DNA of 64,000 bases from an uncultured Candidatus Saccharibacteria bacterium (lineage in GTDB: Bacteria > Patescibacteriota > Minisyncoccia > Phycocordibacterales > Phycocordibacteraceae). Position numbers and translations under genes: made by a program. Positions 12,211 to 60,297 of this stretch are shown here, in pieces (position 1 is the stretch's first letter; each line of letters begins with the position of its first letter). The DNA is taken from NCBI GenBank assembly GCA_964398815.1, contig CAYNNZ010000001.1, forward strand, positions 53,071-117,070, in the 5' to 3' direction. The notes below the pieces were generated by a model. That model searched no databases and was not told the DNA's origin. It saw nothing but the letters and a program-made list of their open reading frames with translations.

Positions 12211-12245
12211 AATCAATAAAACCTCCAGTGGAGGTTTTATTGATT
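12211..12245. terminator. bidirectional terminator between the PBP gene and dnaN
   Basis: Inverted repeat AATCAATAAAACCTCCA-GTG-GAGGTTTTATTGATT. It overlaps the dnaN stop codon. Confidence 0.6.
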
Positions 12246-17551: not shown

Positions 17552-17553
17552 AG

Positions 17554-18522: not shown

Positions 18523-18523
18523 A

Positions 18524-19498: not shown

Positions 19499-19546
19499 TA
19501 CTGTGTAGTATACCGCCTCGAACTCTCCGAAAAACCACCCCTGGGG

Positions 19547-20500: not shown

Positions 20501-20503
20501 AGG

Positions 20504-22330: not shown

Positions 22331-22335
22331 AGGTG

Positions 22336-22995: not shown

Positions 22996-22996
22996 A

Positions 22997-23416: not shown

Positions 23417-23446
23417 CACTACCAGTATACCCGACGTGCACACGCG

Positions 23447-24241
23447 CTATTCAACAGGTTCGCGATACGGGTCGACGCTATATGACTTCACTACGGGTGC
23501 ACCAGGAAGATTAGCTGGAGGTGGCGGCATAGGACGCACGGGAGCAATCTGCGGGGGTGGTGCAGGCGGCATAGGTGGAGGAGTAACCACCTGTGGAGGT
23601 GCAGCCGGCACTATCGGAGGGGTGGTGTGCGCGACTGAGATTGGCTCGGGCATGCGATGTTCCCGCACCGCCTCAATGTCGGTGGCCATGGTGCGCATCT
23701 GAGGGTGGTACTCCCCTGCTGGTATTGCTGGCGCCGGTGTAGGTGGAGGTGTTGGAACGACCGGTGCGGGCGGCGGTACAACGGAAACTGGTGCGGGTGC
23801 GGGAACTGCCGTAGGTGTAGGAGGAGTCAGTGGCTCTTCGGTGGCTACTGAGCTAATGGTAGTGGGCTGATAGGTTTCAACTAAATCACGTCGAGCCTCA
23901 ACTATTTCCTCTGCCGAATCTTCATCTTCCTCCTTAAAATTTCGCACCCGTTCACGAACAGGGATAAATATCTCCTCATTCAGGCTCGCCAAAATCTTCT
24001 TGGCAGTTTCGGAATCTATACCCGCCATTACTAGCTCGCCGAGCGTTTCAGCAGGGCTTTGTAAACCCATAAGCATGTAGGTTGCGGACTTCGAAAGCGT
24101 CCCACTTACATCGACATGAAGATTGTTGCGTGCAGCGATGCCGCCAAGCGTACGAGCCAAGTCATCCTCAAGAAGATACGCTCGAATCGGCTTCGGAAGC
24201 CCATTAAACGCGGCAGTATATTGCTGATTGGAGATTTCCAT
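23447..24241 (-). CDS. proline-rich hypothetical protein (T4SS-like operon)
   Basis: Structured N-terminal approximately 110 aa, followed by long PxP repeats (PPTPTAVPAPAPVSVVPPPAPVVPTPPPTPAP...). Native-like codon usage. Confidence 0.45.
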   Translation of the reverse strand: MEISNQQYTAAFNGLPKPIRAYLLEDDLARTLGGIAARNNLHVDVSGTLSKSATYMLMGLQSPAETLGELVMAGIDSETAKKILASLNEEIFIPVRERVRNFKEEDEDSAEEIVEARRDLVETYQPTTISSVATEEPLTPPTPTAVPAPAPVSVVPPPAPVVPTPPPTPAPAIPAGEYHPQMRTMATDIEAVREHRMPEPISVAHTTPPIVPAAPPQVVTPPPMPPAPPPQIAPVRPMPPPPANLPGAPVVKSYSVDPYREPVE

Positions 24242-24244
24242 ACT

Positions 24245-26959
24245 CTATTTATGCCAGTAGGTGTCGGCAACTCCGCTCTTTGCAAACCACGCATTGATGC
24301 TTGCGCTATTCGGATGTTTTGCGTCGCGGACTGCCGCTGCCACCTTACGGATATCTTCGTCATCGAATTTAGATTCACGCTGGAGTTCCGTCAGGTCAGC
24401 AACGGTAAATGAGGCAATAACGGTCGGGTGTAGGAGCGCGGTCGACGAGAGCTTAGCCTTATTTTTAGAATTGAGGGTGGTTGCGAAGCGCTTAATTTTT
24501 TCGTCCTCTTCAATAGCGGCTGCCATGTCTCCTGCAGCCAAGAGACGGTTATAGTCGCCAACTGCAGCCTCAACCTGACCCTTACGGCTGTGGGTGTAGA
24601 CCAGGTCTCGCTGATTTTTCGTAAGTGAACTATTTTTCCCAAGGAATTCATTTTGATCGCTAGAAATAATGCTTTCGCCATTCTTTGGATCTGTTTTCTT
24701 AAGCAGCTGCTCGAAGGTAACGGCGTCGTACTTAGCAAGCATCTCCAGTTCTTTGTTGTTGAGGCCACGAACTGTATCCTTACCAGCGCTGTACTCGCCA
24801 GCAACCGCCGCCTTAATACCGTCAAACCGCGCCCCCGAAATGTCCTTTTTCTGGACCGCGTTCAACTTGTCGCTCTCCATAAGCTTCTGGAACTGATCAG
24901 GCGATAGGTTGTTTATAAGAGCGCCAACTCCGTGCTGGATATCGTGCATTGCCGCAAGTTCGTCAGTGGAAAGACCTGCCAAGAATCGCTGGTTTTCAGG
25001 AGAAAGCTCAATAACTTTTCCTGTCTTCGGGTCGATCTTCCCTGCTTCGATGTCCTTAACCTGTTTCTTAAGGTCGATAAGTGCAACTTCCTTATTATAT
25101 TGAGCATCGTTCTTCTGCATCTTGTCGTGAACATCATGTATCTGGTGCTGCATATCGCCCAGCGTTGCGTGTTCAGCAGGACCACCCGCGACCTTACTGA
25201 TGGCGCCCATACCAGGTACGGCCCAGTTACGGATATCCGTATTCGCGTTCTCAATTGGCCGTAACATATTGTTCGTGACAAAACGTGTGATGCCTAAGTT
25301 CCCTACCGGAGACCTCTGAAGTGAGGTGCGAGCCACGCGTGCCGCACCATTCGTTACGGTATTCGATACGCGCGCCATGCCGCCGAAGACAACAGCACCC
25401 GCCATCTTTGTCGCCGCGGAAGAGCCGATTGCACTCATGTCCTTTGCGGTCTGGGTAGCTGCAAGCAAGAAGCCGACCATGAGGATGAACATTACAACAA
25501 TGCTGACATTACTAATGCCACCACTTGAAATTGCGCTTGCGAGCGTTGTGGTTTCCGAACCGAGCGACACGCGCATCCCGTCAACGAATTTCACTGCGAC
25601 GAGCACCATCAATATGTAGACCGGAGCGTAGAATGCCTGCTTCAAAAGCTGGTCCCACCACATCTTTGCGAACTTATGTAGTATCGGCACTGCCATTCCA
25701 GCGAACCCAATCGGAGACACTGCCATGAGGAAAGCGAGTGTGACTGCGCGAATTGAAAGCATGATGGTCGCAGCAAGCAGAACCATCGCGAGGGTTGCTA
25801 CGAATATGGTCAGCCCAATCATAATGAGCGCATTCTGAACATTTGAATCAGTAAAAACAGTTATGCCATCCGCAGGATTGAAGATGGTAGTGATGCCCGT
25901 AATCTGCATGATGGCCCCCGCGATGCCACTTTCTGTCGCGCACCTATATAGGTCTGAGGCGTCCGTACAGAGTCCGTTCCCAGCCTGGCGGTAGAGCGTG
26001 CTTCCGAGGGCGTTACTAGTATCTATGATTGCCTCCGCAGCGAAGAGGCTGAAGTTCATTAAAATCGCGAAGATAATGAGCGTCGGCAGTGCACGTTTGG
26101 CAGTAAATTCATTGCCGGGCAGGTTCAGGATGGTGCTGATACCCATGAAAATAAATCCGAAGAGAAGGAGGATGTTCCCTATGTCGCGAAGAATGCCCCA
26201 TGCGGCAAGCATGCCGGGGTTATTTCCGATGAGGTTTCCGAACTGAAAGACTGTGATGTAGATGGTCCAGTTGAAAATGATGCCCACGAGGCCGAGGAAG
26301 AACGCAGCAAGCCAGAGGAAGAAGAGCGCCACTCGCTTAACGACTTCGTAGACCAGGTCCCCGACACAGGGCCAGATGTTGCCCGGAATATTACATTGCG
26401 AGTGCGCCTCAGCGACCGCTGCGGCAGCGGTTTGAGTTTCACTAACTTGTGCTTGGGCCGCGGCCGCATTATTTACATCAGCCGAGCCTGAGGCGACAGG
26501 TGCGTTTGCGTTAGTAGTTACATTATTACCGGTCGTCGCTTGGCTCGTAGCGGCCGTTTGAGGCACGGTGCGTGGGTAGCCTGTAGTGGTGACGTTCGCT
26601 CGCGTACTGGTATTGAGAATTCTCTCGGTCTGTGTTGGCGGATTGGCATCAGAGTCGAAATTAACGTAAAGACTTGTTCCGTCAGTGTACTGAATTTCGC
26701 ACGTACCATTCTCTTCTCTTGCATTAGCCTCGGTTGATGACATCTGCACCGCTGTTCCCTCAGTTATGACGGTGTACCAGCAATGAATGCCATTACTTTT
26801 AGGAGTTTTCCCCGCAGGCGTTTGGAATGCTGCGAGCGCTGTGTGTGGTGTGAAGAATGAAACAACAAGAACGAGAGCCCCAAGAAGGAGTGTCTTCTTC
26901 ACCGGGTCTTTCCAGACAAACGTCATGGCCTTAGGTGCCGCACTGAGCTTGAGCAGCAA
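24245..26959 (-). CDS. VirB6/TrbL-like polytopic membrane protein with an approximately 480-aa C-terminal hydrophilic extension
   Basis: 904 aa. N-terminal secreted region, then a central block of at least 6 TM helices (FFLWLAAFFLGLVGIIF..., LLLFGFIFMGISTIL..., IMIGLTIFVATLAMVLLAATIML..., YAPVYILMVLVAVKF...). The C-terminal charged domain is long. The VirB6 assignment is by topology and context only. Confidence 0.55.
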   Translation of the reverse strand: MLLKLSAAPKAMTFVWKDPVKKTLLLGALVLVVSFFTPHTALAAFQTPAGKTPKSNGIHCWYTVITEGTAVQMSSTEANAREENGTCEIQYTDGTSLYVNFDSDANPPTQTERILNTSTRANVTTTGYPRTVPQTAATSQATTGNNVTTNANAPVASGSADVNNAAAAQAQVSETQTAAAAVAEAHSQCNIPGNIWPCVGDLVYEVVKRVALFFLWLAAFFLGLVGIIFNWTIYITVFQFGNLIGNNPGMLAAWGILRDIGNILLLFGFIFMGISTILNLPGNEFTAKRALPTLIIFAILMNFSLFAAEAIIDTSNALGSTLYRQAGNGLCTDASDLYRCATESGIAGAIMQITGITTIFNPADGITVFTDSNVQNALIMIGLTIFVATLAMVLLAATIMLSIRAVTLAFLMAVSPIGFAGMAVPILHKFAKMWWDQLLKQAFYAPVYILMVLVAVKFVDGMRVSLGSETTTLASAISSGGISNVSIVVMFILMVGFLLAATQTAKDMSAIGSSAATKMAGAVVFGGMARVSNTVTNGAARVARTSLQRSPVGNLGITRFVTNNMLRPIENANTDIRNWAVPGMGAISKVAGGPAEHATLGDMQHQIHDVHDKMQKNDAQYNKEVALIDLKKQVKDIEAGKIDPKTGKVIELSPENQRFLAGLSTDELAAMHDIQHGVGALINNLSPDQFQKLMESDKLNAVQKKDISGARFDGIKAAVAGEYSAGKDTVRGLNNKELEMLAKYDAVTFEQLLKKTDPKNGESIISSDQNEFLGKNSSLTKNQRDLVYTHSRKGQVEAAVGDYNRLLAAGDMAAAIEEDEKIKRFATTLNSKNKAKLSSTALLHPTVIASFTVADLTELQRESKFDDEDIRKVAAAVRDAKHPNSASINAWFAKSGVADTYWHK

Positions 26960-28442
26960 GCTGATTCATTTGCATGACGATGGTCGTGCCGTTTGTGGAC
27001 GTCGGTTGCGCTTGGGCTTCTGCGTAGAGCAAATCGCTTGGCGTTGGCCTCGTGTTTGCCCTGAGGAACGCGTCGTAACTAGTATTCGCCTGCCCTATTG
27101 CAGCTGCCTGAGCGCTCGCTGAAAGTGTGGCCGAATTGATTATTGTTGTTCGAATCGTATCGAGGGCTGCAATTTGTTGAGGTGTTGAACCAATCACCTG
27201 CGCTGCCTGAGCAAGTATTGGGTTGATTTGCGTGGAGATAATCGTGGCCGAATTCGGCGTGCAGGTAGAGTTCTGCAGCGCACCCTTTGCAGCCTGCGCC
27301 GCTGCGTTTATAGCCTGCCAGTTCGCGTAGTATGACTGAAGCGCGTTCAGTTTTTCACTAATAACTCCTGCGGACGTGCCGGCGAGTGCGATGCCGGAAG
27401 AGGCCTGTGTAGTGCTCTGAGTGTCCGGCTGGGTGAAATAATCTCGTCCGCCGGTCGCAGTGGAGCCGCGCGAAAGCCCGGCAAGCCCGGTTGCTCCGAC
27501 CACCTGCTGCATAAGCTGGCCCATGAGTGCGTTCACGAGTTCGTTGATTTCATCGGCTTGCACGAGTTCATCAGTCCCAAGCCCGAGCGAGTGGTTTATC
27601 TGCCCGGCAAGCACCGACCCCGGAGTTTCGATGTGGCTTGCGAGACAGGTCTGATGCGGTGTGAGATCAATGTTAACGGTGCCGTCAGACCCCGTCGTAG
27701 TATTACCGCTTCCTTCGAATGTGGTAGAAGTGAGGTCACATCTGCGCCACGAGAAGAACCCGCCACCATTCGCAACCTCCTCATGAAGTTGTGCGCCTAC
27801 CGCAGCGACGCGTCTATCTAATTCCGATTGGAGCAACTGCCGTGCGCCCAAATAATTATTCTGCGGATTAAGAACGGCTTCGGTCCATGCTCGAAGACCT
27901 CCCTGCCTAATGTCTCCTCGTGAAAATGCTGCTGGATCGTCGCTCACCCGATTCAAGGTGTACGGATTACGGATGAAGAAACTATCTGCGTTAGTTCCGA
28001 TGTAGTAAGCGCGGAGTACCGACTGAGCGATTTCATTTTGGAATGGGGACTCGATTTCAAGATTATTTTCCAGTTGATTAAAGAAGTCATTCGTCGCTTG
28101 ATCCGCTGCGTCTTGAATAGTGGCCCGTAGGTCAGTTGCGAAGGCAGGTGAGCCCTGGAAGCCAGTGTTTATCCAATTCACGGTGCTTCGGACAATGGAC
28201 TGTATGGCAATCCGGCCGATAGCCACCGCTGCACCGTCCAGCGTGAACTCCTTTATGTTGAGGGCGTTGCTGAGCGACTGAATCGCTGCGGTCGACACGG
28301 AAGTGATAATCGCTCGTGCGACTTGGATAGGACTATCGTAGTCAGCGGCCTGTACCGGTCTCGGGGCAATTGAGAAAACGATGGCAAAAGCCACCACCAG
28401 CGCAGCGATCTTCTTTACAAATGCGGGGCGGGAGGAGTTCAT
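26931..28442 (-). CDS. secreted hypothetical protein (T4SS-like operon)
   Basis: Signal peptide MNSSRPAFVKKIAALVVAFAIVFSIAPRPVQA. 503 aa, Ala/Gln/Thr-rich. No recognisable domain. Confidence 0.5.
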   Translation of the reverse strand: MNSSRPAFVKKIAALVVAFAIVFSIAPRPVQAADYDSPIQVARAIITSVSTAAIQSLSNALNIKEFTLDGAAVAIGRIAIQSIVRSTVNWINTGFQGSPAFATDLRATIQDAADQATNDFFNQLENNLEIESPFQNEIAQSVLRAYYIGTNADSFFIRNPYTLNRVSDDPAAFSRGDIRQGGLRAWTEAVLNPQNNYLGARQLLQSELDRRVAAVGAQLHEEVANGGGFFSWRRCDLTSTTFEGSGNTTTGSDGTVNIDLTPHQTCLASHIETPGSVLAGQINHSLGLGTDELVQADEINELVNALMGQLMQQVVGATGLAGLSRGSTATGGRDYFTQPDTQSTTQASSGIALAGTSAGVISEKLNALQSYYANWQAINAAAQAAKGALQNSTCTPNSATIISTQINPILAQAAQVIGSTPQQIAALDTIRTTIINSATLSASAQAAAIGQANTSYDAFLRANTRPTPSDLLYAEAQAQPTSTNGTTIVMQMNQLAAQAQCGT

Positions 28443-29449
28443 GGTGATTTAGAAGCGGCGGTCGAATCGCGCGCGTATATAAGGGTGCCGAAGAAGTGCG
28501 ACCCAGGTTCCCCTTTGAATATTTCTACCTGTTCAGCTGCGTATACGCCGTAAAGTGTGACGAGTGATTGGGTGAATGCGTCCGCCTGATCGCCGTAATT
28601 TTCGATACCTATCATGCTGCGCACCGGGTCACTCTCAAGCACTGAAAGATCCGTGAGTGTTCCGGAAAGCAGCATGAGAGAGTTTGCAAGCGCGAGGTGC
28701 GCGGTTGCTGCTTCTTTCGGTACAGAAATCTTCATCAGGTCACGCGCAATGGCTGCGTACGCAACACCGTCCTGCCCAAGGCGCTTGAGAGCAGCGGCGT
28801 CTGAGTGTTGGGTACCTGCAACGAGGTCATCGAGCATGTCGCTTCCTGCCGGAGCAGGGTGCGCGAGGAATGCTGTTTGTGCATCCACGGCATACGTGCG
28901 AAGCGCGTCAGGACCTGTACCCTCAACATGTACTTGACCCTGATTGAATGCGTTCGCAACCTGATGTGCTGCACGCAGCTGCCCCACTGCCGCGACCACG
29001 AACTGCTCTATTTCTGCCGGAGTAGGAGGCTTGGCGCCGCGCTTTGAGATGTAGTCTGCAAAAAGCGTGCGCGAGAATTCTTCAGTTATCGTCTGCGGCT
29101 TTGCGTCAACGCCTGGGACGTCCTTTGCGGATACGGTCGTGGTCGTGGCGTTCGCGAACTTCGGCGCAACGAGACCCTGCGCTACCGCTTCCCCATCGGT
29201 CGCGGTCTGATTCACAGAGTGCGGGTTGTTCGGGTCCGTGCCGTAGAGCGCCTCTTCCCAATCAGGAAGGCCATCATTATCGGAATCCTTTGCGGCGTAT
29301 GAAACCAGCAAGTCATGAGTGGATTCTGCGCCTGCAGTATTGAAGAATCGGAATGGAAGCGGACCTGAAATCATCACGGCGACTACAATCAAGCCGAGTG
29401 CCAGTACTCCTGATGCTGCTATAGCGATTGTGCGACGAGAATAAGCCAC
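28439..29449 (-). CDS. membrane-anchored hypothetical protein with a thrombospondin-type-3-like Ca-binding motif (first gene of the T4SS-like operon)
   Basis: N-terminal TM helix. Motif DSDNDGLPDWEEALYGTDPNNP. Its start overlaps the previous gene by 4 nt (ATGA). Confidence 0.5.
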   Translation of the reverse strand: MAYSRRTIAIAASGVLALGLIVVAVMISGPLPFRFFNTAGAESTHDLLVSYAAKDSDNDGLPDWEEALYGTDPNNPHSVNQTATDGEAVAQGLVAPKFANATTTTVSAKDVPGVDAKPQTITEEFSRTLFADYISKRGAKPPTPAEIEQFVVAAVGQLRAAHQVANAFNQGQVHVEGTGPDALRTYAVDAQTAFLAHPAPAGSDMLDDLVAGTQHSDAAALKRLGQDGVAYAAIARDLMKISVPKEAATAHLALANSLMLLSGTLTDLSVLESDPVRSMIGIENYGDQADAFTQSLVTLYGVYAAEQVEIFKGEPGSHFFGTLIYARDSTAASKSP

Positions 29450-42461: not shown

Positions 42462-43256
42462 ATGCGCATCATTTCTTGGAACGTGAATGGCATCCGGGCG
42501 GTCCACAAGAAGGACCTCTTCATGCCTTTTATAAAGAAGTACAAGCCGGACATTCTCCTCTTGCAGGAAACAAAGGCTGAGCAGCATCAATCCCCGCTCG
42601 ACCTGCCTGACTACGAGGAGTTTTGGAGTTCTTCCAAGGCTCGCAAGGGATACAGCGGTACAGCCATTTTTACGAAGATGACGCCGAATGACGTGCTCTT
42701 CGGTATGCCCGAAGACATCGTAAAAAAGCACGGACTTGGAGACGATAGCTACGGCGACCCAAATGAGGAAGGCCGGATTATCGCGGCCGATATGCACGAC
42801 TTCTACGTGGTGTCGGTATATACCCCAAACGCTAAGGATGACCTATCTCGCCTCGCGCTGCGCCACAAGCACTGGGACCCCGCATTCCTTGAGTACATGA
42901 AGCGGCTACAAGAAGAAAAGCCAGTCATTTTTGGCGGCGATTTGAATGTTGCCCATAGGCCAGAGGACTTGGCGCGACCGAAGGAAAACGAAGGCATGAA
43001 GGGCTTCACGAATGAGGAGCGCGAGGGCATCGACAATATTATTTCAGCCGGCTTCGTCGATACGCTTCGCGAGTTTAAAAAGGAAGGAGGACTGTATACC
43101 TGGTGGAGTCCATGGGGCGATGCACGCGCACGCAACGTGGGGTGGCGCATTGACTACGTATTTGCATCGAAATCATTTGCCAAGCATGTGAAGACCGCAG
43201 AAATACTCCCTGAAGTAATGGGCTCAGACCACTGCCCTGTCTCCATTACGCTCTAA
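42462..43256 (+). CDS. xth: exodeoxyribonuclease III (AP endonuclease, Xth family)
   Basis: MRIISWNVNGIRA..LLQETK...GGDLNVAH...SDHCPVSI conserved EEP/AP-endonuclease motifs. Confidence 0.9.
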   Translation: MRIISWNVNGIRAVHKKDLFMPFIKKYKPDILLLQETKAEQHQSPLDLPDYEEFWSSSKARKGYSGTAIFTKMTPNDVLFGMPEDIVKKHGLGDDSYGDPNEEGRIIAADMHDFYVVSVYTPNAKDDLSRLALRHKHWDPAFLEYMKRLQEEKPVIFGGDLNVAHRPEDLARPKENEGMKGFTNEEREGIDNIISAGFVDTLREFKKEGGLYTWWSPWGDARARNVGWRIDYVFASKSFAKHVKTAEILPEVMGSDHCPVSITL

Positions 43257-43284
43257 AGGACAATGTGTGCATAACATGTCCTTG

Positions 43285-43312
43285 ACTCTGTCCTATAGAA
43301 AACTATAATGAA
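43285..43312 (+). promoter_or_regulatory. perfect sigma70 consensus promoter with no downstream ORF
   Basis: TTGACT at 43285-43290, 16-nt spacer, TATAAT at 43307-43312. The predicted start is near 43320, at the head of a roughly 350-nt non-coding stretch. Confidence 0.5.
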
Positions 43313-43319
43313 TTCTAGC

Positions 43320-43667
43320 GGGTAAGCTTCCTCGTCGAGAGACTTGAGAGAGCGCCCCGACCAGGCTGTTCTTTGAGAGTTCTTTCGATCAGGCGTGTAG
43401 TGTAGAAAGCCGGTGACTAACGTAACCGGAGCGTATCTCCCGAAAATTAAGCGAGTCCATCCGGAGGTTTCCACACGAGCGCAGTGCGAATACATAGTGC
43501 AAGAAGTGTTGATGTCGTTCCCATTCTCCCGGGGGTCACCCAAACAAAGCCCCAGCTCCTTTTTCAGACCCCCAACCGGAACGACTATCAAGTCAGAGGC
43601 CCTAGGCCAATGCATGTATCAAAAGATATATCCATTGTCCTGGGGCCTCTTTGTTTCCCGTGGAAGC
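43320..43667 (+). ncRNA. candidate structured non-coding RNA, family unknown
   Basis: 410-bp gap between convergent xth and cca with no credible ORF. Strong promoter. Long-range complementarity: GCUUCC near 43330 pairs with GGAAGC near 43660; GGGGGUC pairs with GACCCCC; AAACAAAGCCCCAG pairs with CUGGGGCCUCUUUGUUU. Strand inferred from the promoter only. Confidence 0.3.
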
Positions 43668-45137
43668 CTAGCAAACGTGATGTTTCCTCATTATTTCGTT
43701 GATTTCTCTTTCCTCTTCAACTTCCCTCTTTTTCTTGCCTGAATCCCCCAGTTTCTTCAGTTCAAGCTCGTCAAGCTTCAGTAGCTCAGCGGTGCGTTCA
43801 TCAAGATAGTTAACCGTATTCTTCTTCGGGTCCTCCAGTACTTCCTCTAGGAGCGCGTTCAACACGTGACCGATTTTAGGTCCTGGTTGCACATGAAACT
43901 CGTTCATTATGCGGGTACCGTCTGTTGCCAGCATGCCTACGGAAATAGGGTCACGCAGCGCCTCCTCCACCATCGCCTTGTATTTCCGGAATCGGAACGG
44001 CTGTTCCTTCGGCCTTCCTGTTCCGATACGGTCGCAGATACGTAGATTCAGTAAGTCCCATATGTTCTCCTCCCCCACGTTCCGAATCATGCGCCTGACA
44101 GCAGAAAGAGTTATCTGGTCAGGGTCAGAGAAAAACATGTGCCATCGGACCAATTTTGATACCTTATCGATTGTTTCACGTGAAAAACGTAAATTCTCAA
44201 GAGCCTTCCGGGTTACACGTGAACCAACCACCTCATGGCCATGGAAGGTCCAATCCTTCTTTTCGTCTGACCATCTGCGTGTTTCAGGCTTAGAAACATC
44301 GTGGAAGAGGGCAGCCAGTCGAATATCAAAATCCCAGTCCTTGTCGGCGGCATGCTGCAGTGCCCGCATAAGGTGACCAAATACGTCGTAGCTATGGGCC
44401 TGATTTTGGTCTATCCCAACGCCTCGGGTCAGGTCAGGTGCTATATATTCAAGGATTCCCAGCTGCTGTGCCAATACTAGGGCCAACATAGGCTCTTTGG
44501 ACTGCAATATGCGCACCAACTCGTCCCGAACCCTTTCACGCGAAACATGTCCCAAATTAGGCCCTTTTTCCTTAATCGCTGCAGCGGTATCAGTGTCGAG
44601 GGCGAATCCCAGCTCGGCAACTAGGCGTATGGCGCGCATAAGGCGGAGCGCATCCTCTTCAAACCGGTCCGTCGCCACACCCACTGTTTTCAACACTTTC
44701 GCCTCAATGTCCTTTTGTCCTTTATAGGGGTCTACTATATGTCCTTTAGACTCATCGAGGGCAATAGCGTTAATGGTGAAGTCTCTACGTGCAAGGTCAT
44801 CCTCGAGACTCTCGCCGAACGTGACCTCATCAGGGCGGCGTTTGTCGGTATAGCCCGACTCGGTGCGATACGGGGTCACTTCAATTATTGAAAGGGTAGG
44901 GTCCTCGCTCCCGGTTTTTACGCCTACGGTGCCGAAGTCATTCTCATAGAATGATTCTGGGAAGATTCGCTGGATGTCTTCGGGCTTGGCGTTCGTGGTC
45001 ACATCCCAATCCTTTGGGGTGCGTCCTATGAACAGATCTCGTACGCAGCCGCCCACCAAGTAGGCCTCGAATCCATTCTTCCGAAGCTCCTCCGCGACTG
45101 TCCGTACTTCAAGCGGAATAGGGAAGTGCATTGTCAA
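43668..45137 (-). CDS. cca: CCA tRNA nucleotidyltransferase with C-terminal HD domain
   Basis: Pol-beta nucleotidyltransferase motif GGCVRDLFIGRTPKDWDVTT and HD motif FHDVSKP. 489 aa. Confidence 0.85.
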   Translation of the reverse strand: MTMHFPIPLEVRTVAEELRKNGFEAYLVGGCVRDLFIGRTPKDWDVTTNAKPEDIQRIFPESFYENDFGTVGVKTGSEDPTLSIIEVTPYRTESGYTDKRRPDEVTFGESLEDDLARRDFTINAIALDESKGHIVDPYKGQKDIEAKVLKTVGVATDRFEEDALRLMRAIRLVAELGFALDTDTAAAIKEKGPNLGHVSRERVRDELVRILQSKEPMLALVLAQQLGILEYIAPDLTRGVGIDQNQAHSYDVFGHLMRALQHAADKDWDFDIRLAALFHDVSKPETRRWSDEKKDWTFHGHEVVGSRVTRKALENLRFSRETIDKVSKLVRWHMFFSDPDQITLSAVRRMIRNVGEENIWDLLNLRICDRIGTGRPKEQPFRFRKYKAMVEEALRDPISVGMLATDGTRIMNEFHVQPGPKIGHVLNALLEEVLEDPKKNTVNYLDERTAELLKLDELELKKLGDSGKKKREVEEEREINEIMRKHHVC

Positions 45138-45190: not shown

Positions 45191-45262
45191 GCTCCTGTGG
45201 TGAAATGGATATCACAACTGTCTTCGGAACAGTCGTTCCAGGTTCGAGTCCTGGCGGGAGCA
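45191..45262 (+). tRNA. tRNA-Arg (anticodon UCG)
   Basis: Acceptor GCTCCTG/CGGGAGC with one U-G wobble. D-arm GTGA-AATGGATA-TCAC. Anticodon stem ACTGT/ACAGT with loop CTTCGGA. T-arm CCAGG-TTCGAGT-CCTGG. Discriminator A, no encoded CCA. It ends 1 nt before the lysA ATG. Confidence 0.75.
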
Positions 45263-45263
45263 C

Positions 45264-46433
45264 ATGACGAAGAAAGAATTATTGGGTCTTGCTTCAAAAT
45301 ATGGGACACCGCTCTACGTCTATGACGAGGCAGTAATACGGCGCCAGTGCCAGAAGTTGCGTATAGCGTTTCCAAACGCGGCCATTCATTACGCGGTCAA
45401 AGCTAACTCGAACCCCGCGCTGTTGCGCATCATCGAAAGTGAGAAGTTTCATGTGGAATGCGTCAGTCTCGGTGAGTTAGCGCTCGTTCAATCAGTCGGC
45501 TTCCCGAAAGAACGAATCTCGTTCACATGCTCTAACCTCACAGAAGGGGAGTTACTGGCAGCAAGCAAGACTGGCGCACGTATTCATTTGGATTCACTTG
45601 AGCAGGTGCGTATATGGGGCGAACGCCGACTCGGGAAAGAAATTTCCGTGCGTTTGAACCAGGGTATAGGCGCTGGGCATCATAGCCACGTCATTACGGG
45701 CGGACCCGATAGTAAATTCGGTATTAGTCTCGCGGATGTTCCGATGCTTCTGAAACTGACAAAGAAGTATGGACTCACGGTCACCGGACTCCAGCAGCAC
45801 ATAGGTTCTAACGTGCTCACCCCTGCGATGTTTCTTAAGGCTATGAAAACGCTCTTCGCGACTGCTCTCGCGTTTCCAGAACTATCCCACCTCGACTTTG
45901 GCGGTGGATTCGGCATCGCGTATAGGCCGGAGCAGTCAGCACTCGATCTACCAGCGGTGAGCAAAGGTTTTTCGAAACTGTGCGCTGATTTCGAGAAGAA
46001 GCGTGGAAAACAATTTGTGTATTCATTCGAACCTGGCCGTTACCTCGTTGCAGAGGCGGGTACGCTCCTCGTTACCGTTGTCGATAGGAAGGCTACGAGC
46101 AAGCATGCCTTTGTAGGCGTGAATTCGGGCTTTAATCAGCTGATACGGCCTGCTATGTACGGTTCATACCATCCGATACAAAACGTCAGTCGTAGCGGCA
46201 AAACAGAGCTGGTGACTGTCGCCGGTAATGTCTGCGAGTCAGGAGATGTGTTCGCTACGCATCGCGCGATAGCGACCCCTAAAATCGGCGATGTGTTGGC
46301 TATCGAGTGCGCGGGTGCGTACGGGTTCTCTATGGCCTCCTATTACAACCTTCATGCCCCTCCACGGGAGGTGCTGGTATCAGGCGGGAAGGCCCGCGAT
46401 ATCTCGTTTGACCCCAAGGAGTACGCCCGCTAG
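45264..46433 (+). CDS. lysA: diaminopimelate decarboxylase
   Basis: PLP-binding YAVKANSNPALL, GGGFGIAY and CESGD motifs of the LysA / Orn-DAP-Arg decarboxylase fold. Confidence 0.9.
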   Translation: MTKKELLGLASKYGTPLYVYDEAVIRRQCQKLRIAFPNAAIHYAVKANSNPALLRIIESEKFHVECVSLGELALVQSVGFPKERISFTCSNLTEGELLAASKTGARIHLDSLEQVRIWGERRLGKEISVRLNQGIGAGHHSHVITGGPDSKFGISLADVPMLLKLTKKYGLTVTGLQQHIGSNVLTPAMFLKAMKTLFATALAFPELSHLDFGGGFGIAYRPEQSALDLPAVSKGFSKLCADFEKKRGKQFVYSFEPGRYLVAEAGTLLVTVVDRKATSKHAFVGVNSGFNQLIRPAMYGSYHPIQNVSRSGKTELVTVAGNVCESGDVFATHRAIATPKIGDVLAIECAGAYGFSMASYYNLHAPPREVLVSGGKARDISFDPKEYAR

Positions 46434-47318: not shown

Positions 47319-47389
47319 CGGGCTGTCGTATACCGGTAGTACGCTACTTTTGGGAAGTAGATGACGGAGTTCGATTCTCCGCAGCCCGA
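47319..47389 (+). tRNA. putative tRNA-Pro (anticodon UGG), 71 nt, slightly atypical
   Basis: Perfect 7-bp acceptor CGGGCTG/CAGCCCG. Anticodon stem CTACT/AGTAG with loop TTTGGGA. T-arm CGGAG-TTCGATT-CTCCG. Discriminator A, no CCA. The D-arm and variable region are a little short. Confidence 0.5.
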
Positions 47390-47392
47390 CAC

Positions 47393-48181
47393 GTGAATTC
47401 CATGAAAATTTATTCCTGGAACGTATATTGCTACAACCGCGAAGTGCCGAGGGTGGCTGACTACATACGCCACCTCGATTTCGACGTCCTGTGCCTCCAG
47501 GAAGTCACTCCTGAGCTGCTCGAGAAATTGCGAGCGATGCCGTTCCATCTTTCCTATCACATTGATGTCATCCGCCTCTTCTGGCGAGGTCGCACTGAAC
47601 ACAACTACGTGGCGATTCTTTCCAAGGAGGCGCCAGTGAATACGGGCAACCTCCAATTTTTCAACTTTCCGTTTCCGCTTCACACACGCGCATTCATCGC
47701 GTTCATGTCGCTCTTCCGTTGGTCCTTCGTTACCGAACGCGGCGCGCTCTATATCGATGTGCCGTTCAAAGGCGAAACGTTGCGAGTATTCTCTGTGCAC
47801 CTCACGCTTTGGGGTGCGACGAACCGCGCGAAAGAGTTCGAAGCGGTGACTGGACACATAGAGCCGGGGAAGCCGACCGCGGTATGTGGAGATTTCAATG
47901 TCATCGAATACGGACCGATGAAAGTTTTGAATTGGCTCCTCGGTGCACCGCTACGCGAAGGAATGCCCTGGTATCCGGAACGCGATTTATTCGAAGAACG
48001 TTTCTCCAAAGCAGGTCTCGCTAATCCACTCCGCGGTAAAGTGACACATGCGTTCTCACGTTCGCAGCTTGATCACATTCTTCTTTCAAAAGACTTAGTC
48101 GCAACAACTGCGGTGGTGCATAAGGAAACGCACGGTTCAGATCACCAGCCTGTGTCAGTGGAAATCGCTAGAGTCCAATAG
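47393..48181 (+). CDS. endonuclease/exonuclease/phosphatase (EEP) family protein
   Basis: YSWNV...LCLQEV...GDFN...GSDHQPVSVEI are the conserved EEP catalytic motifs. It starts 3 nt after the tRNA-Pro 3' end. Confidence 0.7.
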   Translation: MNSMKIYSWNVYCYNREVPRVADYIRHLDFDVLCLQEVTPELLEKLRAMPFHLSYHIDVIRLFWRGRTEHNYVAILSKEAPVNTGNLQFFNFPFPLHTRAFIAFMSLFRWSFVTERGALYIDVPFKGETLRVFSVHLTLWGATNRAKEFEAVTGHIEPGKPTAVCGDFNVIEYGPMKVLNWLLGAPLREGMPWYPERDLFEERFSKAGLANPLRGKVTHAFSRSQLDHILLSKDLVATTAVVHKETHGSDHQPVSVEIARVQ

Positions 48182-57317: not shown

Positions 57318-59078
57318 TTGGCTATGCAGGTCTCAGAAAGCGAACTGAAGACGTTTATTCTCGATTCCGGTCTTGTACCCCGGAAGGATGTTGAGGCTGC
57401 AGATGTGGAAGCAAAAGAGCGTCAGCAATCCATCGGCGACATTCTCGTTTCATCCGGCGCACTTACGCCGGATGCACTCCGTCGTATCAAAGCCTATGTG
57501 CTCGGCATTCCGTTTGTGAATTTGAAGGACAAGAAGATTGCGCTCGATGTCCTCTCGCTCATTCCGGAACCAATTGCGCGTACGCACAGTATCGTTGCCT
57601 TCCGCAAGACGGAAAACGAACTCGAGGTTGCCATGCTCGACACCCAGGACCTGCCCGCAATCGATTCGGTGCGTAAGAAGACGGGTCTTAAAATCTCGCC
57701 ACGCCTTACGGATGACGAATCTCTCAAGCACGTGCTTTTGCAGTACCAGAAGTCGCTTAAGGAAGAGTTCGGCGACCTTATTGCAACCGAGGCAGGGAAG
57801 ATAAACCTCGTGAAGGAGGCCCTTGGCGACGACGCGTCCGAGGGTGACCTCAAGAAAATGGCAGAAGACCTGCCTATTGTGCGCATTGTCGACACACTTC
57901 TGCGTCACGCCATCATTCAGGACGCGTCCGATATTCATATTGAGGAGCTGGAGGATGCAACGCTCGTGCGCTATCGCATCGACGGCATCCTGCATGACGC
58001 GATGACGCTTCCGAAGAACGCAGGTCCCGGAATTACGGCGCGCATCAAGGTGCTCGCAAACCTAAAACTTGATGAGAAGCGCCTGCCACAGGACGGGCGA
58101 TTCAAGATGGAAACTGATAGCGATAAGGTGTCGTTCCGTGTCTCGCTTCTACCGACCTACTACGGAGAAAAAATCGTCATGCGCCTTCTACGCGAGACAG
58201 GGGAGGGCTTCACGCTCGAAGGGCTTGGGTTCCATGGTGAAAGCCTCGAGCGCATTCATCAGGCAACGAAGCAGACGACAGGCATCATCCTCATCTCAGG
58301 ACCTACCGGTTCCGGTAAAACGACAACGCTCTATACGGTGCTCGATATTTTGAATAAGCCGGACGTGAACATCTCGACGATTGAGGACCCAATCGAGTAT
58401 CAGATGAAGCGCGTGAATCAGACGCAGGTGAACCCGCAAATCGGCATGACGTTTGCGGCAGGGCTGCGTGCACTCCTGCGCCAAGACCCGAATGTCATCA
58501 TGGTGGGAGAAATCCGCGATAGCGAGACGGCGTCACTCGCAATCAACGCGGCACTTACCGGCCACATCGTGCTCTCTACCATTCACACCAACTCAGCAGT
58601 TGGTGCCATCCCGCGTCTCATGGACATGGGTGTCGAACCGTTCCTCCTCATCTCAACCCTTCGGCTCGTGGTGGGTCAGCGCCTCACGCGCCGACTCTGC
58701 GACGACAAAGAGGAGTACACACTCGATGCGAAGGAGCGCGAGAAAATCGCATCTCCGGACCACTTCGATGCAATGTTCAAAGCACTTGCCGACGAGAAAT
58801 TGGTCAAAGAAAGCGCAAAATTGGATACGTTGCCGTTCTATCACCCGAAGCCAGGTGGTGACTGCGAAGACGGGTACAAGAGCCGTATGGGTATCCACGA
58901 GATTCTCACGGTCTCTCCTGCAATACGCGAACTTATTCTCCATAGCGCGTCGCCCGATGAGCTCGAAGCACAGGCACGCAAGGAGGGAATGCTCACCATG
59001 CTCGAAGACGGCCTTTATAAGGCAGCTCGTGGGATAACCTCGATAGAGGAAGTGCTCCGCGCAGTAAACGACGGCTGA
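57318..59078 (+). CDS. pilB: type IV pilus assembly ATPase PilB
   Basis: N-terminal GSPII_E_N domain. Walker A GPTGSGKTTTLY, Asp box, Walker B, His box. Immediately upstream of pilC. Confidence 0.9.
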   Translation: MAMQVSESELKTFILDSGLVPRKDVEAADVEAKERQQSIGDILVSSGALTPDALRRIKAYVLGIPFVNLKDKKIALDVLSLIPEPIARTHSIVAFRKTENELEVAMLDTQDLPAIDSVRKKTGLKISPRLTDDESLKHVLLQYQKSLKEEFGDLIATEAGKINLVKEALGDDASEGDLKKMAEDLPIVRIVDTLLRHAIIQDASDIHIEELEDATLVRYRIDGILHDAMTLPKNAGPGITARIKVLANLKLDEKRLPQDGRFKMETDSDKVSFRVSLLPTYYGEKIVMRLLRETGEGFTLEGLGFHGESLERIHQATKQTTGIILISGPTGSGKTTTLYTVLDILNKPDVNISTIEDPIEYQMKRVNQTQVNPQIGMTFAAGLRALLRQDPNVIMVGEIRDSETASLAINAALTGHIVLSTIHTNSAVGAIPRLMDMGVEPFLLISTLRLVVGQRLTRRLCDDKEEYTLDAKEREKIASPDHFDAMFKALADEKLVKESAKLDTLPFYHPKPGGDCEDGYKSRMGIHEILTVSPAIRELILHSASPDELEAQARKEGMLTMLEDGLYKAARGITSIEEVLRAVNDG

Positions 59079-59079
59079 T

Positions 59080-60297
59080 ATGAAATTCAAAGTAAAGCTT
59101 AAGAAGGAAGATGGAAGCGAAGAAGTTCGCATTATGGAGGCAGCATCCCGCTTCGCCGTATATGGCGACGCAGAGAAAGAAGGAGCGGTGGTGCTTTCCA
59201 TCGAGAATGGGGGAGGTAAGGGGTTTGGCATTGGAAAACTCGCGAACCTCACCATCGGTTCTGGGGTAAAAACCGAAGAGCGCATCACGCTCACGAAGAA
59301 TCTCGCCGCCATGCTTTCTGCCGGCCTTACGCTTTCACGCGCGCTATCGGTGATTGAACGACAGACGCGCAACAAGGTACTCAAAGGAATCATCACGGAC
59401 CTCGAAACAAAGGTGAAAGAAGGACTTTCATTCCACGAAGCGCTTGAGCTCCACAACAAAATCTTCTCGCGCTTGTTCATCTCTATGACGAAGGCTGGTG
59501 AAGAGTCCGGCAAACTCGCAGAAGCGCTTGGCATCGTCGCGCGCCAGATGGACCGCTCCTTTACGCTCGAGAAGAAAATCAAAGGCGCGATGATTTACCC
59601 AGGCATCATCCTTTCTGCCATCATCGTCATCGGCGTGCTCATGCTCATTTATGTCGTGCCGACGCTCTCGAACACGTTCAAGGAGCTTAATGTCGCGCTA
59701 CCGACTGCCACCCGAGTCATCGTCGGCGCGTCGGACTTCATGGCGAATAACGTAATCATGGTGTTCGTCATCCTTGCGGTTTTTTTCGGCCTCGTATTCG
59801 CATTCATCCGCTCAAAGATAGGTGCGCGCATCATCCTTGCGGTCGCGCTTCGTGTGCCGGTCATCGGCGAACTGGTACGAGAGACCTTCGCTGCCCGCGC
59901 GGCACGCTCTCTTTCCTCACTTCTTTCCTCCGGAGTCGAAATGCTTTCGGCTATTGAAATCGCCGCGGAGGTGGTGGGCGATAACGTGTTCGGAAAAGTG
60001 GTGACCGAAGCGGGAACGCGCGTTAAGAAGGGCGAAACCCTTTCCGTAACATTCAGCGAATACACCAAGCTGTATCCATTTTTCTTTGCAGATATGATTG
60101 CGGTGGGTGAGGAGACGGGAAAAGTCTCAGACATGCTCTCTCAGGTCGCGGAATACTACGAAATCGACGTCGAAGATCGTACCAAGGACCTCTCCACTAT
60201 CATCGAGCCAATTCTCATGCTCATCATCGGCGTCGCAGTGGGTATTTTTGCACTCGCAATGATTTCGCCGATTTACTCCCTCTCGTCCAAAATTTAG
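59080..60297 (+). CDS. pilC: type IV pilus platform protein PilC (GspF family)
   Basis: Two GspF repeats and three TM segments. Follows pilB by 1 nt. Confidence 0.85.
   Translation: MKFKVKLKKEDGSEEVRIMEAASRFAVYGDAEKEGAVVLSIENGGGKGFGIGKLANLTIGSGVKTEERITLTKNLAAMLSAGLTLSRALSVIERQTRNKVLKGIITDLETKVKEGLSFHEALELHNKIFSRLFISMTKAGEESGKLAEALGIVARQMDRSFTLEKKIKGAMIYPGIILSAIIVIGVLMLIYVVPTLSNTFKELNVALPTATRVIVGASDFMANNVIMVFVILAVFFGLVFAFIRSKIGARIILAVALRVPVIGELVRETFAARAARSLSSLLSSGVEMLSAIEIAAEVVGDNVFGKVVTEAGTRVKKGETLSVTFSEYTKLYPFFFADMIAVGEETGKVSDMLSQVAEYYEIDVEDRTKDLSTIIEPILMLIIGVAVGIFALAMISPIYSLSSKI

Follow-up and report, generated by a model that had tools for sequence, protein, structure and literature searches.

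The gap between xth and cca in the window (by which we mean the whole 64,000-nucleotide stretch of DNA analyzed here) probably holds a clade-specific, independently transcribed, non-coding and structured RNA gene on the + strand, reaching from position 43317 to ~43657, whose product would act in trans with a protein as its most likely partner. The original prediction had placed a ~350-nt independently transcribed structured ncRNA here, and this is borne out by a syntenic position in ~78 species, by promoter and terminator signals that are conserved, by the lack of a conserved ORF and by massive covariation in 41 base pairs. This RNA, hereafter the xth-cca RNA, apparently belongs to a previously undescribed class, with no match among 4227 Rfam families and none described in the searchable literature. 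It is very likely important to its host, since it has apparently been kept in all species of a large clade and has a near-consensus promoter, covariation-supported pairs and ~60 invariant unpaired nucleotides.

At the same site (xth, then the RNA gene, then convergent cca), 76-78 of the 80 Paceibacterota/Kaiserbacteria genomes compared, each standing for a species, have a homolog. With nhmmer, 72 of the 80 species loci proved to carry one immediately 3' of cca and on the other strand; the covariance model of domain 3 (CM R2, described below) added four loci, two further loci carry divergent copies, and the remaining two are contigs truncated at cca. The xth gene was always upstream of the RNA, even where Xth was only ~45% identical. 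To date, the family is known from one clade only, within which Cca is at least 74% identical, and because gene order in this clade is conserved anyway, adjacency to cca says little about function. Sequence patterns that avoid hundreds to thousands of chance matches cover less than 30% of the known members, and such patterns would therefore re-find close relatives only. A mobile-element, plasmid or phage origin was rejected, as the RNA region had no blastn match in phage and plasmid collections.

The gap has no credible ORF and is non-coding, confirming what the original prediction had stated. Neither the 120-aa antisense ORF nor the two + strand ORFs of the gap gave a Pfam match, and across 70 homologs the longest stop-free stretch keeps neither its strand nor its frame or position, and its length ranges from 42 to 128 aa. 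No coding sequence was found on the + strand 3' of the RNA before position 43668, and the same is true of all loci. With its own promoter, an intrinsic terminator and no conserved ORF, the xth-cca RNA looks like an independent small-RNA gene in the generic sense.

The promoter had been described as a perfect sigma70 consensus at 43285-43312; it is present, but at 43282-43309, 3 nt away, and it matches 11 rather than all 12 consensus positions. Taken alone, the promoter in the window is not above chance, with 2 such sites versus 2.8 expected (3.5 kb). It becomes convincing because an equivalent promoter, TTTACa/t-N16-TAnnAT, lies at equal distance 5' of the RNA in nearly all 70 homologs. Transcription is predicted to start at a conserved A or AG 7-8 nt past the -10 box. 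An inverted repeat spans the xth stop and the -35 box, with a third TGTCCT copy at 43290-95 inside the promoter spacer; in the consensus of 71 aligned loci it reads TGTCCTTTAC at the level of at least 90% and taaaggac / tgtcct at the level of at least 60%, and its exact 10-mer has no second copy in the window. This repeat is a putative terminator-like hairpin of xth and/or an operator.

At the 3' end, the outer stem T1 is directly followed by a U-tract in 33 of 40 species and hence serves as the terminator. The window and four other loci (L010, L011, L020 and L018) have T1 without the U-tract. The window's subclade instead ends in an extra long hairpin, which covaries among the closest homologs (alignment columns 346-399). 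The predicted RNA is accordingly ~341 nt long here and 212-294 nt (median 268) where T1 terminates.

Table 1. Features of the xth-cca locus, with positions in the window.
Feature	Position	Strand	Basis or remark
xth	42462-43256	+	Exo_endo_phos (Pfam)
xth-cca intergenic gap	43257-43667		
Inverted repeat, AAGGACA (43256-62) / TGTCCTT (43277-83)	43256..43295	.	spans xth stop and -35 box
Sigma70-type promoter TTGACT-N16-TATAAT	43282..43309	+	11/12 consensus positions
Whole predicted RNA (xth-cca RNA)	43317..43657	+	predicted TSS to U-tract after last hairpin
P1, peripheral 5' hairpin	43318..43359	+	independent fold predictions; variable, often GNRA-capped
Pyrimidine block GUUCUUUG-AGAG-UUCUUUC-GAUCA (tandem UCUUU + AUCA)	43368..43391	+	unpaired in consensus models
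Domain 2, six-helix rod (~90 nt)	43393..43482	+	CM R1, MFE folds
Pa	43393-96/43479-82	+	domain 2 helix
Pb	43400-03/43473-76	+	domain 2 helix
Pc	43405-08/43468-71	+	domain 2 helix
Pd, CCGG/CCGG	43410-13/43461-64	+	domain 2 helix, covarying
Pe	43415-18/43454-57	+	domain 2 helix
Pf	43428-31/43437-40	+	domain 2 helix, loop CGUAU
3' strand of Pc/Pb	43468..43479	+	GUUCCACGUGAAAGC in most species; degenerate UUUCCACACGAG in the window
Domain 3	43515..43585	+	CM R2, independent MFE folds
T1, outer stem, GUCGUUCC / GGAACGAC	43515-22 / 43578-85	+	domain 3
Single-stranded CAUUCUCC (UCUCC region)	43523-30	+	domain 3
T2, inner stem, GGGGGUC / GACCCCC	43531-37 / 43567-73	+	domain 3, covarying
T2 loop ACCCAAACAAAGCCCCAGCUCCUUUUUCA, C-rich, 25-29 nt	43538..43566	+	loops of 40 homologs
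Extra long hairpin + UUUGUUU, intrinsic terminator of the window's subclade	43594..43657	+	MFE fold
Degenerate parS-like palindrome TGTTTCCCGTGGAAGC	43652..43667	.	3 mismatches to TGTTNCACGTGAAACA; between RNA terminator and cca stop
cca	43668-45137	-	convergent to xth and the RNA gene

The conserved fold consists of three serial local domains (Table 1); its 5' and 3' ends are not joined by a closing helix, and long-range pairing of the P2/P4 type is absent. Hairpin P1 is predicted in ~52 of 70 homologs and absent in ~18, which have a 5' leader of 10-25 nt, and it bears a GNRA cap in ~27 of 68. Docking of this cap into the UAAG receptor-like loop of domain 2 was considered and rejected, as the two do not co-occur (Fisher p = 0.77). 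The pyrimidine block that follows is among the most conserved HMM alignment columns. The conserved internal loops of domain 2 have C(C/U)AACG in their 5' strand and an A-rich ..AAG in their 3' strand. The 3' strand of Pc/Pb contains TTCCACGTGAA exactly in 38 of 71 homologs; in the window this strand is degenerate, and the 5' strand has changed to match. In domain 3, the T2 loops of 40 homologs share the consensus (A/C)CCA..N..GCCCCnGCUCCUUUU.

Four helices had been named in the original prediction, and only GGGGGUC/GACCCCC, which is T2, proved to be conserved and covarying. A proposed 'closing helix' GCUUCC/GGAAGC (43326-31/43662-67) can be drawn in the window and in no homolog; its GGAAGC arm lies past the terminator U-tract, inside the degenerate parS-like palindrome, and the match is due to chance. 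A local CCGG...CCGG hairpin is replaced by the long-range, covarying Pd. The last pairing, AAACAAAGCCCCAG/CUGGGGCCUCUUUGUUU, would pair the T2 loop with the 3' side of the terminator hairpin, is confined to the window's subclade and competes with two supported helices.

Folding energies agree with the strong structure originally claimed, with an MFE z of -6.75 for the + strand of the window and -3.67 for the - strand. Among the 70 homologs, the median sense folding z was -4.3, 99% were below -2, and the sense strand folded better than the antisense in 58. In addition, G-U pairs (36 of 548 paired cells in domain 2 and 35 of 714 in domain 3) point to an RNA from the + strand, because the other strand would read A-C at these positions.

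To assess covariation, models were started from small hand-annotated seeds and then realigned with Infernal. In 0.95 Mb, both strands, the model of domain 2 (CM R1) gave 26 matches and CM R2 gave 40 (43511-43589 in the window), all of them syntenic. In these alignments, which are fitted to the proposed structure so that pair counts are somewhat inflated, 92.0% of domain 2 cells were paired, versus 68.4% after shuffling and 28-53% with slid partners, and 95.4% of domain 3 cells, versus 71.7% in column shuffles; the slid-partner controls of both domains together span 28-59%. Model fitting does not account for the high pairing, as judged from the slid-partner control and from unconstrained MFE folds of individual species, which give the same topology for domains 2 and 3. 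Compensatory double substitutions were present in 40 of the 41 modelled pairs (23/23 in domain 2 and 17/18 in domain 3), which settles in favor of the RNA the comparison with orthologous intergenic regions that had been proposed at the outset. Double-change cells numbered 135 in domain 2 and 168 in domain 3, compared to 36±6 and 45±7 in shuffles, and none of 500 shuffles reached the observed values on all five covariation measures. MAFFT misaligns the shifted helices of this RNA, and with such unrefined MAFFT alignments as input, RNAalifold picked up nothing beyond the Pf hairpin and the terminators. An all-versus-all column search for pseudoknots gave only trivially compatible invariant blocks, e.g., UCUUUC with GAAAG. 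Judged from the alignments, the fold has been kept by compensatory evolution.

From its anatomy, the xth-cca RNA would be stable, probably abundant and active in trans. Action in trans rather than in cis is suggested because the RNA is followed by no gene in its own orientation and has no conserved segment that competes with the terminator. The invariant pyrimidine-rich single strands and the conserved internal loops could form recognition surfaces, and the paired, freely covarying helices may be scaffold only. The partner would most likely be a protein, making the xth-cca RNA part of an RNP or a sequestering RNA like the 6S, Y and raiA-type RNAs; a purine-rich RNA seems a less likely partner. 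That it is a new ribozyme or RNP core, making up for functions that these minimal genomes have lost, is a more remote idea.

Were the partner a purine-rich mRNA, the xth-cca RNA would be a base-pairing sRNA like RsaE/RoxS or RNAIII, with the two UCUUU copies, UCUCC and GCCCCnGCUCCUUUU as its seeds. This would fit a stand-alone gene with promoter and terminator, and conservation among the unpaired nucleotides peaks in pyrimidine tracts, which are presented between domains or in a loop and resemble parts of the anti-SD tail (CCUCCUUUCU). C-rich loops, as in RsaE/RoxS and RNAIII, usually pair with Shine-Dalgarno regions. However, GGAG was present in only 2 of the 46 upstream regions of window genes, and in many of these genes a -10 box precedes the start codon by ~7 nt, a sign of leaderless mRNAs; in a genome so nearly SD-less and mostly leaderless-looking, SD-targeting is unlikely. 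The architecture with its conserved internal loops also exceeds what a carrier of seeds needs, and we consider the sRNA explanation unlikely overall.

Another possible role is that of a cis element, in which a sensor RNA sets termination at T1 against read-through into the parS-like spacer and antisense to cca, with transcriptional interference, antisense regulation or ParB displacement as possible outcomes. Transcription is indeed directed at this spacer and at the cca 3' end, and T1 encloses a conserved, 'ornate' hairpin and loop, as expression platforms do. In the window's subclade, the T2 loop is also complementary to the 3' side of the final terminator hairpin (AAACAAAGCCCCAG/CUGGGGCCUCUUUGUUU) and could act as an anti-terminator, but this complementarity is limited to that subclade. 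Furthermore, T1 is 8-13 bp long and GC-rich with a good U-tract in 33 of 40 species, which predicts efficient constitutive termination, and no gene lies downstream on the strand of the RNA. An anti-terminator competing with T1 was rejected, since the longest upstream runs complementary to the T1 strands (5.0 and 7.3 nt) did not exceed those in shuffles (5.5 and 6.9 nt) and were not fixed in position. A leader of the riboswitch, T-box or attenuator type was likewise rejected, the next gene, cca, being convergent in all loci and a conserved anti-terminator being absent. On this balance a cis-acting element appears improbable.

The RNA gene also borders a dense group of palindromes resembling parS, the centromere site bound by ParB/Spo0J, whose consensus is reportedly TGTTNCACGTGAAACA. 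To our knowledge, parS is a DNA element with no RNA product. Where 1.26 would be expected, the window has 8 parS-like matches with at most 3 mismatches, every one of them within 43652-44547, and in 47 loci of 13.4 kb, 141 of the 143 sites with at most 2 mismatches fall within the 1.75 kb of cca, spacer and RNA. The spacer that holds the degenerate palindrome in the window has 1-2 near-perfect parS-like palindromes in other species. The genes dnaA and dnaN are 29 kb from the cluster, at the GC-skew minimum. By sequence, then, the palindromes have the marks of a parS cluster, with a 16-bp match, several copies and an origin-proximal position; no ParA or ParB domain was found among the 40 window ORFs scanned with Pfam. 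The most conserved block of the xth-cca RNA (GUUCCACGUGAAAGC) is itself parS-like.

Since this cluster adjoins the RNA and the most conserved helix strand is parS-like, part of the sequence conservation, including that of GUUCCACGUGAAAGC, may be due to a DNA-level constraint on ParB sites added to that on the RNA. One could go further and suppose a 'centromere-associated' RNA, the transcript or its transcription taking part in the ParB-parS complex, where it could recruit, titrate or bound ParB/SMC loading. This idea derives from the position of the gene at the edge of the cluster, its transcription toward the cluster and the parS-like helix strand; we regard it as quite doubtful. If true, it would give a bacterial counterpart of centromeric RNAs. 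In any case, it is unusual for a structured RNA to overlap a dense parS-like cluster near the origin, and this offers a testable link to chromosome segregation.

A diverged housekeeping RNA missed by Rfam is very improbable. A size of 270-340 nt, a strong promoter and the neighboring tRNA-maturation gene cca would all fit one, and a 'GUGAAAG' string is loosely like RNase P J11/12. Rfam 15 (4227 families) was searched at the gathering score on the whole window, at E<=10 on 43200-43750 and on two other species (L071 and L033), and at E<=1 on 9 loci. No credible match appeared in the three species even at E<=10, and the permissive scans gave chance matches only (miRNA hairpins, isrD, SraG and RNAI on the terminator hairpins). 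The RNase P, tmRNA, SRP and 6S models had no hit in the three species at E<=10 or in the 9 whole loci, ARAGORN found no tmRNA in the window, and a full-text literature search found no account of such an RNA, the one pertinent paper being that on diverged RNase P RNA of CPR (PMC8172020). The original prediction had left the family open, having found neither the P4 motif nor a tmRNA tag or T-arm, and both points hold.

The defining features of these RNAs are also missing. RNase P RNA has the universally conserved P4 strands CR-I (..GAAAGUCC..) and CR-V (ACAGAA..CGG..), with a P1 closing helix and P2/P4 long-range pairing around the catalytic core. CR-I, searched as GAAAGTCC, and CR-V, searched as ACA[AG]AA..CGG, were each found in 0 of 70 homologs, and relaxed 6-7-mers occurred in only 7-8 of the 70, at non-homologous positions; the three serial local domains, as described above, lack such closure and pairing. 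A tmRNA contains a reading frame for its tag and a tRNA-like domain, whose acceptor stem joins the 5' and 3' ends and which includes a T-arm with GGUUCGANUCC and a 3' end processed at CCA. The T-loop GGUUCGANUCC was found in 0 of 70 homologs, the predicted RNA ends in a terminator rather than being CCA-processed, and there is no conserved ORF for a tag. SRP domain IV is a GNRA tetraloop hairpin with symmetric and asymmetric loops (..GGAA..AGCA..); its motif was found in 0 of 70 homologs, and the apical loop of the rod is the conserved CGUAU pentaloop, not GNRA. 6S RNA is a rod of ~180 nt with a large central bubble between closing and terminal stems, whereas the domain 2 rod has small internal loops only. 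RNase P RNA does escape standard detection in some CPR: in 10 of 35 complete CPR genomes it was found only via sub-threshold RF00010 scores, often with helices missing (PMC8172020). However, such diverged forms are still RF00010-like (PMC8172020), and the xth-cca RNA is not. Identity with RNase P RNA, tmRNA, SRP/4.5S RNA or 6S RNA is thus largely refuted.

There is likewise only the slightest chance that no functional RNA exists and that the conservation reflects DNA elements (the parS/ParB cluster, promoters or terminators of the neighbors) or decayed coding sequence: the extreme concentration of parS-like sites, the parS-like block and the apparent hairpins that palindromes yield by themselves would suit such a view, but the double changes lie mostly outside the palindrome (Pa, Pd, Pe, Pf, T1 and T2), the pairing partner of the degenerate parS-like block in the window is altered to match, folding is strand-asymmetric, the conserved promoter has nothing else to transcribe, and the ORFs keep neither frame nor strand and have no Pfam match. 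A lack of conservation or covariation, or an origin as decayed coding sequence, had been named at the outset as what would speak against an RNA, and on both counts the data favor the RNA.

A structured, trans-acting RNA gene thus remains our preferred reading. Patescibacteria (CPR) have some of the smallest and most streamlined bacterial genomes, and we know of very few regulators or ncRNAs in them beyond the universal ones. With the seed alignments and structures obtained for both domains, the RNA can be annotated in metagenome-assembled genomes. The xth-cca RNA joins a short list of ornate bacterial RNAs; those without known function have historically proved to be ribozymes, riboswitches or RNP cores.

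Compared to known systems, the xth-cca RNA resembles RNase P RNA (RF00010/RF00011) in size, in having its own promoter, in being probably highly expressed and in its place by a tRNA-maturation gene, but it lacks CR-I/CR-V, the P1/P2/P4 closure and, at E<=10 in three species, even a sub-threshold RF00010 match, and it ends at a terminator. With RsaE/RoxS and RNAIII of Firmicutes it shares C/U-rich loop and linker motifs and a promoter-terminator gene; it is far more elaborate and rigid, its host is nearly without Shine-Dalgarno targets, and there is no homology. Like 6S RNA, Ms1 and Y RNA, it would be a stable RNA with a terminator at its end and a rod-like domain whose internal loops are conserved, as suits a scaffold for protein binding, but without the large open-promoter-like bubble, the tRNA-like module or an Rfam match. 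Both GUUCCACGUGAAAGC within the RNA gene and the palindromes beside it, in the spacer and inside cca, agree with the core of parS and cluster ~29 kb from dnaA/dnaN; in contrast to known parS, one parS-like copy lies within a structured RNA and base-pairs there, and ParB binding is putative. Relative to raiA motif RNA, OLE, ROOL and GOLLD, the xth-cca RNA has no sequence or structure match in Rfam 15, is smaller (212-341 nt) than the latter three, is made of local domains in series instead of a multi-way junction core, includes a terminator stem in its conserved fold and is so far confined to one Paceibacterota/Kaiserbacteria-like clade. Like these RNAs, it is a stand-alone non-coding gene with a conserved multi-helix architecture, in which many loop and junction nucleotides are invariant and helices covary freely, and all are lineage-restricted, in gene contexts that are uninformative about function.

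Sequence comparison indicates that the gap between xth and cca, where the original prediction had placed a noncoding RNA gene, encodes a genuine structured RNA class, previously undescribed and with strong comparative support (the xth-cca RNA). The Cca protein places the window in Patescibacteria/Paceibacterota, with 'Candidatus Kaiserbacteria' MAGs and Parcubacteria bacterium C7867-004 (85%) as the closest named relatives. In a comparison set of 80 species-representative loci (Cca 74-85% identical), iterated nhmmer recovered a gap homolog in 72; each sits immediately 3′ of cca on the other strand and has xth before it, even at only about 45% Xth identity. Four more loci were recovered through a covariance model of the 3′ domain (R2), two others (L079 and L032) have divergent copies that show the promoter and the loop signature, and the contigs of the last two (L075 and L083) end at cca, so effectively all members of the clade have the element. 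No phage or plasmid matches to the RNA were found. The upstream xth occurs in two forms among close relatives (L004-L083), about 70-87% and about 42-47% identical to the window Xth, with RNA and gene order unchanged across both, and a second Exo_endo_phos paralog is present in the window at 47393-48181.

The gene is not coding. The three longest gap ORFs of the window had no Pfam match, and the longest stop-free stretch in 70 homologs fell on the plus strand in 46 and on the minus strand in 24, with frame, position and length also varying. The promoter, originally described as a perfect consensus, does exist, with its position and match amended as tabulated below. A single match of this kind is not above chance (2 promoter-grade sites in 3.5 kb, 2.8 expected); a TTTACa/t-N16-TAnnAT promoter was observed at constant upstream distance in nearly all homologs, with a conserved A/AG start 7-8 nt after it. 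An inverted repeat, AAAGGACA-N13-TGTCCTTT (43256-43295), is kept at equivalent sites in about 70 loci, overlaps both the stop codon of xth and the -35 box of the RNA gene, and also makes a terminator-like hairpin for xth. A third TGTCCT lies inside the promoter spacer, and AAGGAC occurs at the 5′ end of the RNA in many species; the repeat could be an operator for some regulator. On the plus strand antisense to cca (44716-44749), the promoter-associated motif TGTCCTTTA(T/G) has two near-copies 24 nt apart, which may represent an internal promoter or operator on that strand, or chance.

Folding of 43318-43670 gave z = -6.75 against dinucleotide shuffles on the plus strand and -3.67 on the minus strand. 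Among homologs, the alignment-free sense-strand z had a median of -4.34, with 99% below -2 and sense stronger than antisense in 58/70. Plain MAFFT/RNAalifold retrieved little structure because drift has altered both the sequence and the register of the helices, while independent per-species MFE folds showed recurring topologies; small register-consistent seeds were therefore annotated by hand and the remaining sequences realigned by Infernal. The model of the middle domain (R1; 3 seeds, 23 pairs in six helices, Pa-Pf) was searched against both strands of 0.95 Mb and returned, at E<0.01, 26 full-length matches, all syntenic and on the correct strand. In the R1 alignment, whose fit to the model inflates pairing somewhat, 92.0% of cells were standard pairs vs 68.4% in column shuffles and 28-53% with partners slid 1-3 columns, and compensatory double changes were seen in 23/23 pairs (135 cells vs 36 ± 6 in shuffles). 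R2 (7 seeds, 18 pairs in the outer and inner stems T1 and T2) gave 40 matches, at the syntenic site only (43511-43589 in the window), with 95.4% of cells paired, a figure inflated in the same way (71.7% in shuffles, 40-59% slid), and double changes in 17/18 pairs (168 cells vs 45 ± 7). A fitting artefact is implausible given the slid controls, the alignment-free z-scores and the independent folds of single sequences. G-U pairs (36/548 cells in R1, 35/714 in R2), together with the promoter and terminator, identify plus as the RNA strand.

Features of the xth-cca RNA and its surroundings (window coordinates)
Feature	Position	Strand	Remarks
dnaN	12237-13379	-	
dnaA	13564-14958	-	
xth	42462-43256	+	Exo_endo_phos domain
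Flagged gap	43257-43667		between xth and cca
Promoter TTGACT-N16-TATAAT	43282-43309	+	11/12 consensus positions
Predicted TSS	about 43317	+	
P1, variable 5′ hairpin	43318-~43359	+	present in about 52/70 species, absent in about 18; often GNRA-capped
Single-stranded block GUUCUUUG-AGAG-UUCUUUC-GAUCA	43368-43391	+	highly conserved
Pa	43393-96/43479-82	+	rod
Pb	43400-03/43473-76	+	rod
Pc	43405-08/43468-71	+	rod
Pd	43410-13/43461-64	+	rod
Pe	43415-18/43454-57	+	rod
Pf	43428-31/43437-40	+	rod; conserved loop CGUAU
Variable A-rich linker	between rod and T1		
T1	43515-22/43578-85	+	
Single-stranded CAUUCUCC	43523-30	+	
T2	43531-37/43567-73	+	29-nt capping loop, consensus (A/C)CCA...GCCCCnGCUCCUUUU
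parS-like sites	43652, 43885, 44172, 44211, 44532		
cca	43668-45137	-	PolyA_pol + HD domains

In the internal loops of the rod (the middle domain), the 5′ strand keeps C(C/U)AACG and the 3′ strand an A-rich ..AAG. A U-tract directly follows T1 in 33/40 species, so T1 is the terminator there, and the RNAs measure 212-294 nt (median 268). No U-tract follows T1 in the subclade of the window, where the terminator is an extra covarying hairpin (43594-~43651) followed by UUUGUUU, for an RNA of about 341 nt. A contact of tetraloop-receptor type between P1 and the rod was rejected on testing, and in pseudoknot searches the candidate partner blocks were invariant. The original prediction is supported in its interpretation and confirmed only partly in its details. 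Of its four pairings a single one is conserved: GGGGGUC/GACCCCC is T2. The proposed closing helix GCUUCC/GGAAGC is present in the window with its 3′ arm past the terminator and in no homolog, the covarying long-range helix Pd takes the place of the local CCGG...CCGG hairpin, and the 14-bp AAACAAAGCCCCAG/CUGGGGCCUCUUUGUUU pairing, an alternative confined to the subclade, joins the T2 loop to the terminator 3′ arm. In this subclade (43542-43555 with 43641-43657; same in L005, L010, L011 and L031) the final terminator hairpin resembles the conserved T2 loop AAAGCCCCAG in its 5′ arm and complements it in its 3′ arm, CUGGGGCCUCUUU, a possible subclade-specific anti-termination or conformational switch.

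At the gathering threshold Rfam 15 detected only five tRNAs in the 64-kb window and nothing in the gap, and at E<=10 on the gap only chance matches of miRNA hairpins to the terminator. ARAGORN found no tmRNA. Since RNase P RNAs of CPR can be strongly diverged and escape Rfam cut-offs (PMC8172020), defining features were tested directly. CR-I and CR-V of P4, the T-loop and the domain IV motif of SRP were each found in 0/70 homologs, and permissive scans of the window and two typical homologs had no match to RNase P, tmRNA, SRP or 6S at E<=10. A housekeeping identity is also disfavoured by the fold, which lacks 5′/3′ closure and ends 3′ in a terminator. No description of such an RNA was found in the literature searched.

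The most conserved RNA block, GUUCCACGUGAAAGC, comprises the 3′ strands of Pc and Pb and the adjoining loop, and is a palindromic core like that of parS, the centromere site bound by ParB (consensus TGTTNCACGTGAAACA). The palindrome (core TTYCACGTGRAA) is repeated in the spacer between RNA terminator and cca stop codon and at three fixed in-frame positions inside cca, where the sites fall at codons V/F-S-R-E and F-H-V. Among 47 loci of 13.4 kb, the 1.75-kb cca-spacer-RNA segment (about 6000-7750 in L004-L083) contains 141/143 sites with <=2 mismatches, and all 8 matches in the window are at 43652-44547, with 1.26 expected in 64 kb. The cluster is probably the chromosome's centromere-like region, and it appears to constrain synonymous sites in cca. 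The minimum of cumulative GC skew (about 14-16 kb) coincides with dnaA and dnaN, so the window includes the replication origin region and the cluster is about 29 kb from the origin, a distance that fits expectation for genuine parS. No ParA or ParB was detected among 40 window ORFs scanned. A run of large ORFs without Pfam match (16310-29449) is interspersed with a TraG/VirD4-like P-loop ATPase (20504-22330), and Type IV pilus/T2SS ATPase genes occur at 5633-7414 and 57318-60297, typical of CPR surface and DNA-uptake machinery beside the origin. In the window the RNA copy of the block is degenerate (UUUCCACACGAG) and its pairing partner compensates (GUGUAGAAA), so RNA-level selection is real; near-invariance of this strand in other species may reflect an overlapping DNA-level constraint. 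A functional tie of the RNA to the partition complex is of low probability, and would be a very interesting reading.

A cis-regulatory leader is excluded because no same-strand gene lies downstream. Control of read-through and regulation by base pairing are the main alternatives to a trans-acting, protein-binding RNA. For the former, no segment competing with T1 was found beyond chance. For the latter, the pyrimidine tracts of the RNA resemble anti-SD pieces. Shine-Dalgarno motifs are almost absent at gene starts across the window (GGAG upstream of 2/46). A -10-like TAnnnT box precedes the start codon of many genes by about 7 nt, as in TAGAAT-GGGCGA-ATG (xth, 42462) and TATACT-TTTTCT-ATG (xerC-like integrase, 41526), which indicates widespread leaderless mRNAs in this organism. 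With near-absent SD motifs and leaderless-type genes, pairing of the C-rich loop with SD sequences is unlikely. Two protein genes begin 1-3 nt after a tRNA gene: tRNA-Arg (45191-45266 region) ends at 45263 before a lysA-like ATG at 45264, and tRNA-Pro (47319-47395 region) ends at 47390 before the GTG (47393) of the second Exo_endo_phos gene. Processing of tRNA 3′ ends could directly create leaderless mRNAs here, in the manner of 'tRNA punctuation'. The sequences past these ends (..GCAC-ATG, ..ACAC-GTG) suggest that both tRNA genes lack an encoded CCA, in which case Cca would be essential.

Our best estimate, which we infer from the pattern of conservation, is that the xth-cca RNA is a trans-acting, protein-binding RNA, acting in an RNP or by sequestering. 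Its helices covary freely and many of its unpaired nucleotides (two UCUUU repeats, AUCA, CCAACG, UCUCC, the CGUAU loop and the C-rich loop of T2) are invariant, a combination that typifies RNAs to which a specific partner binds.
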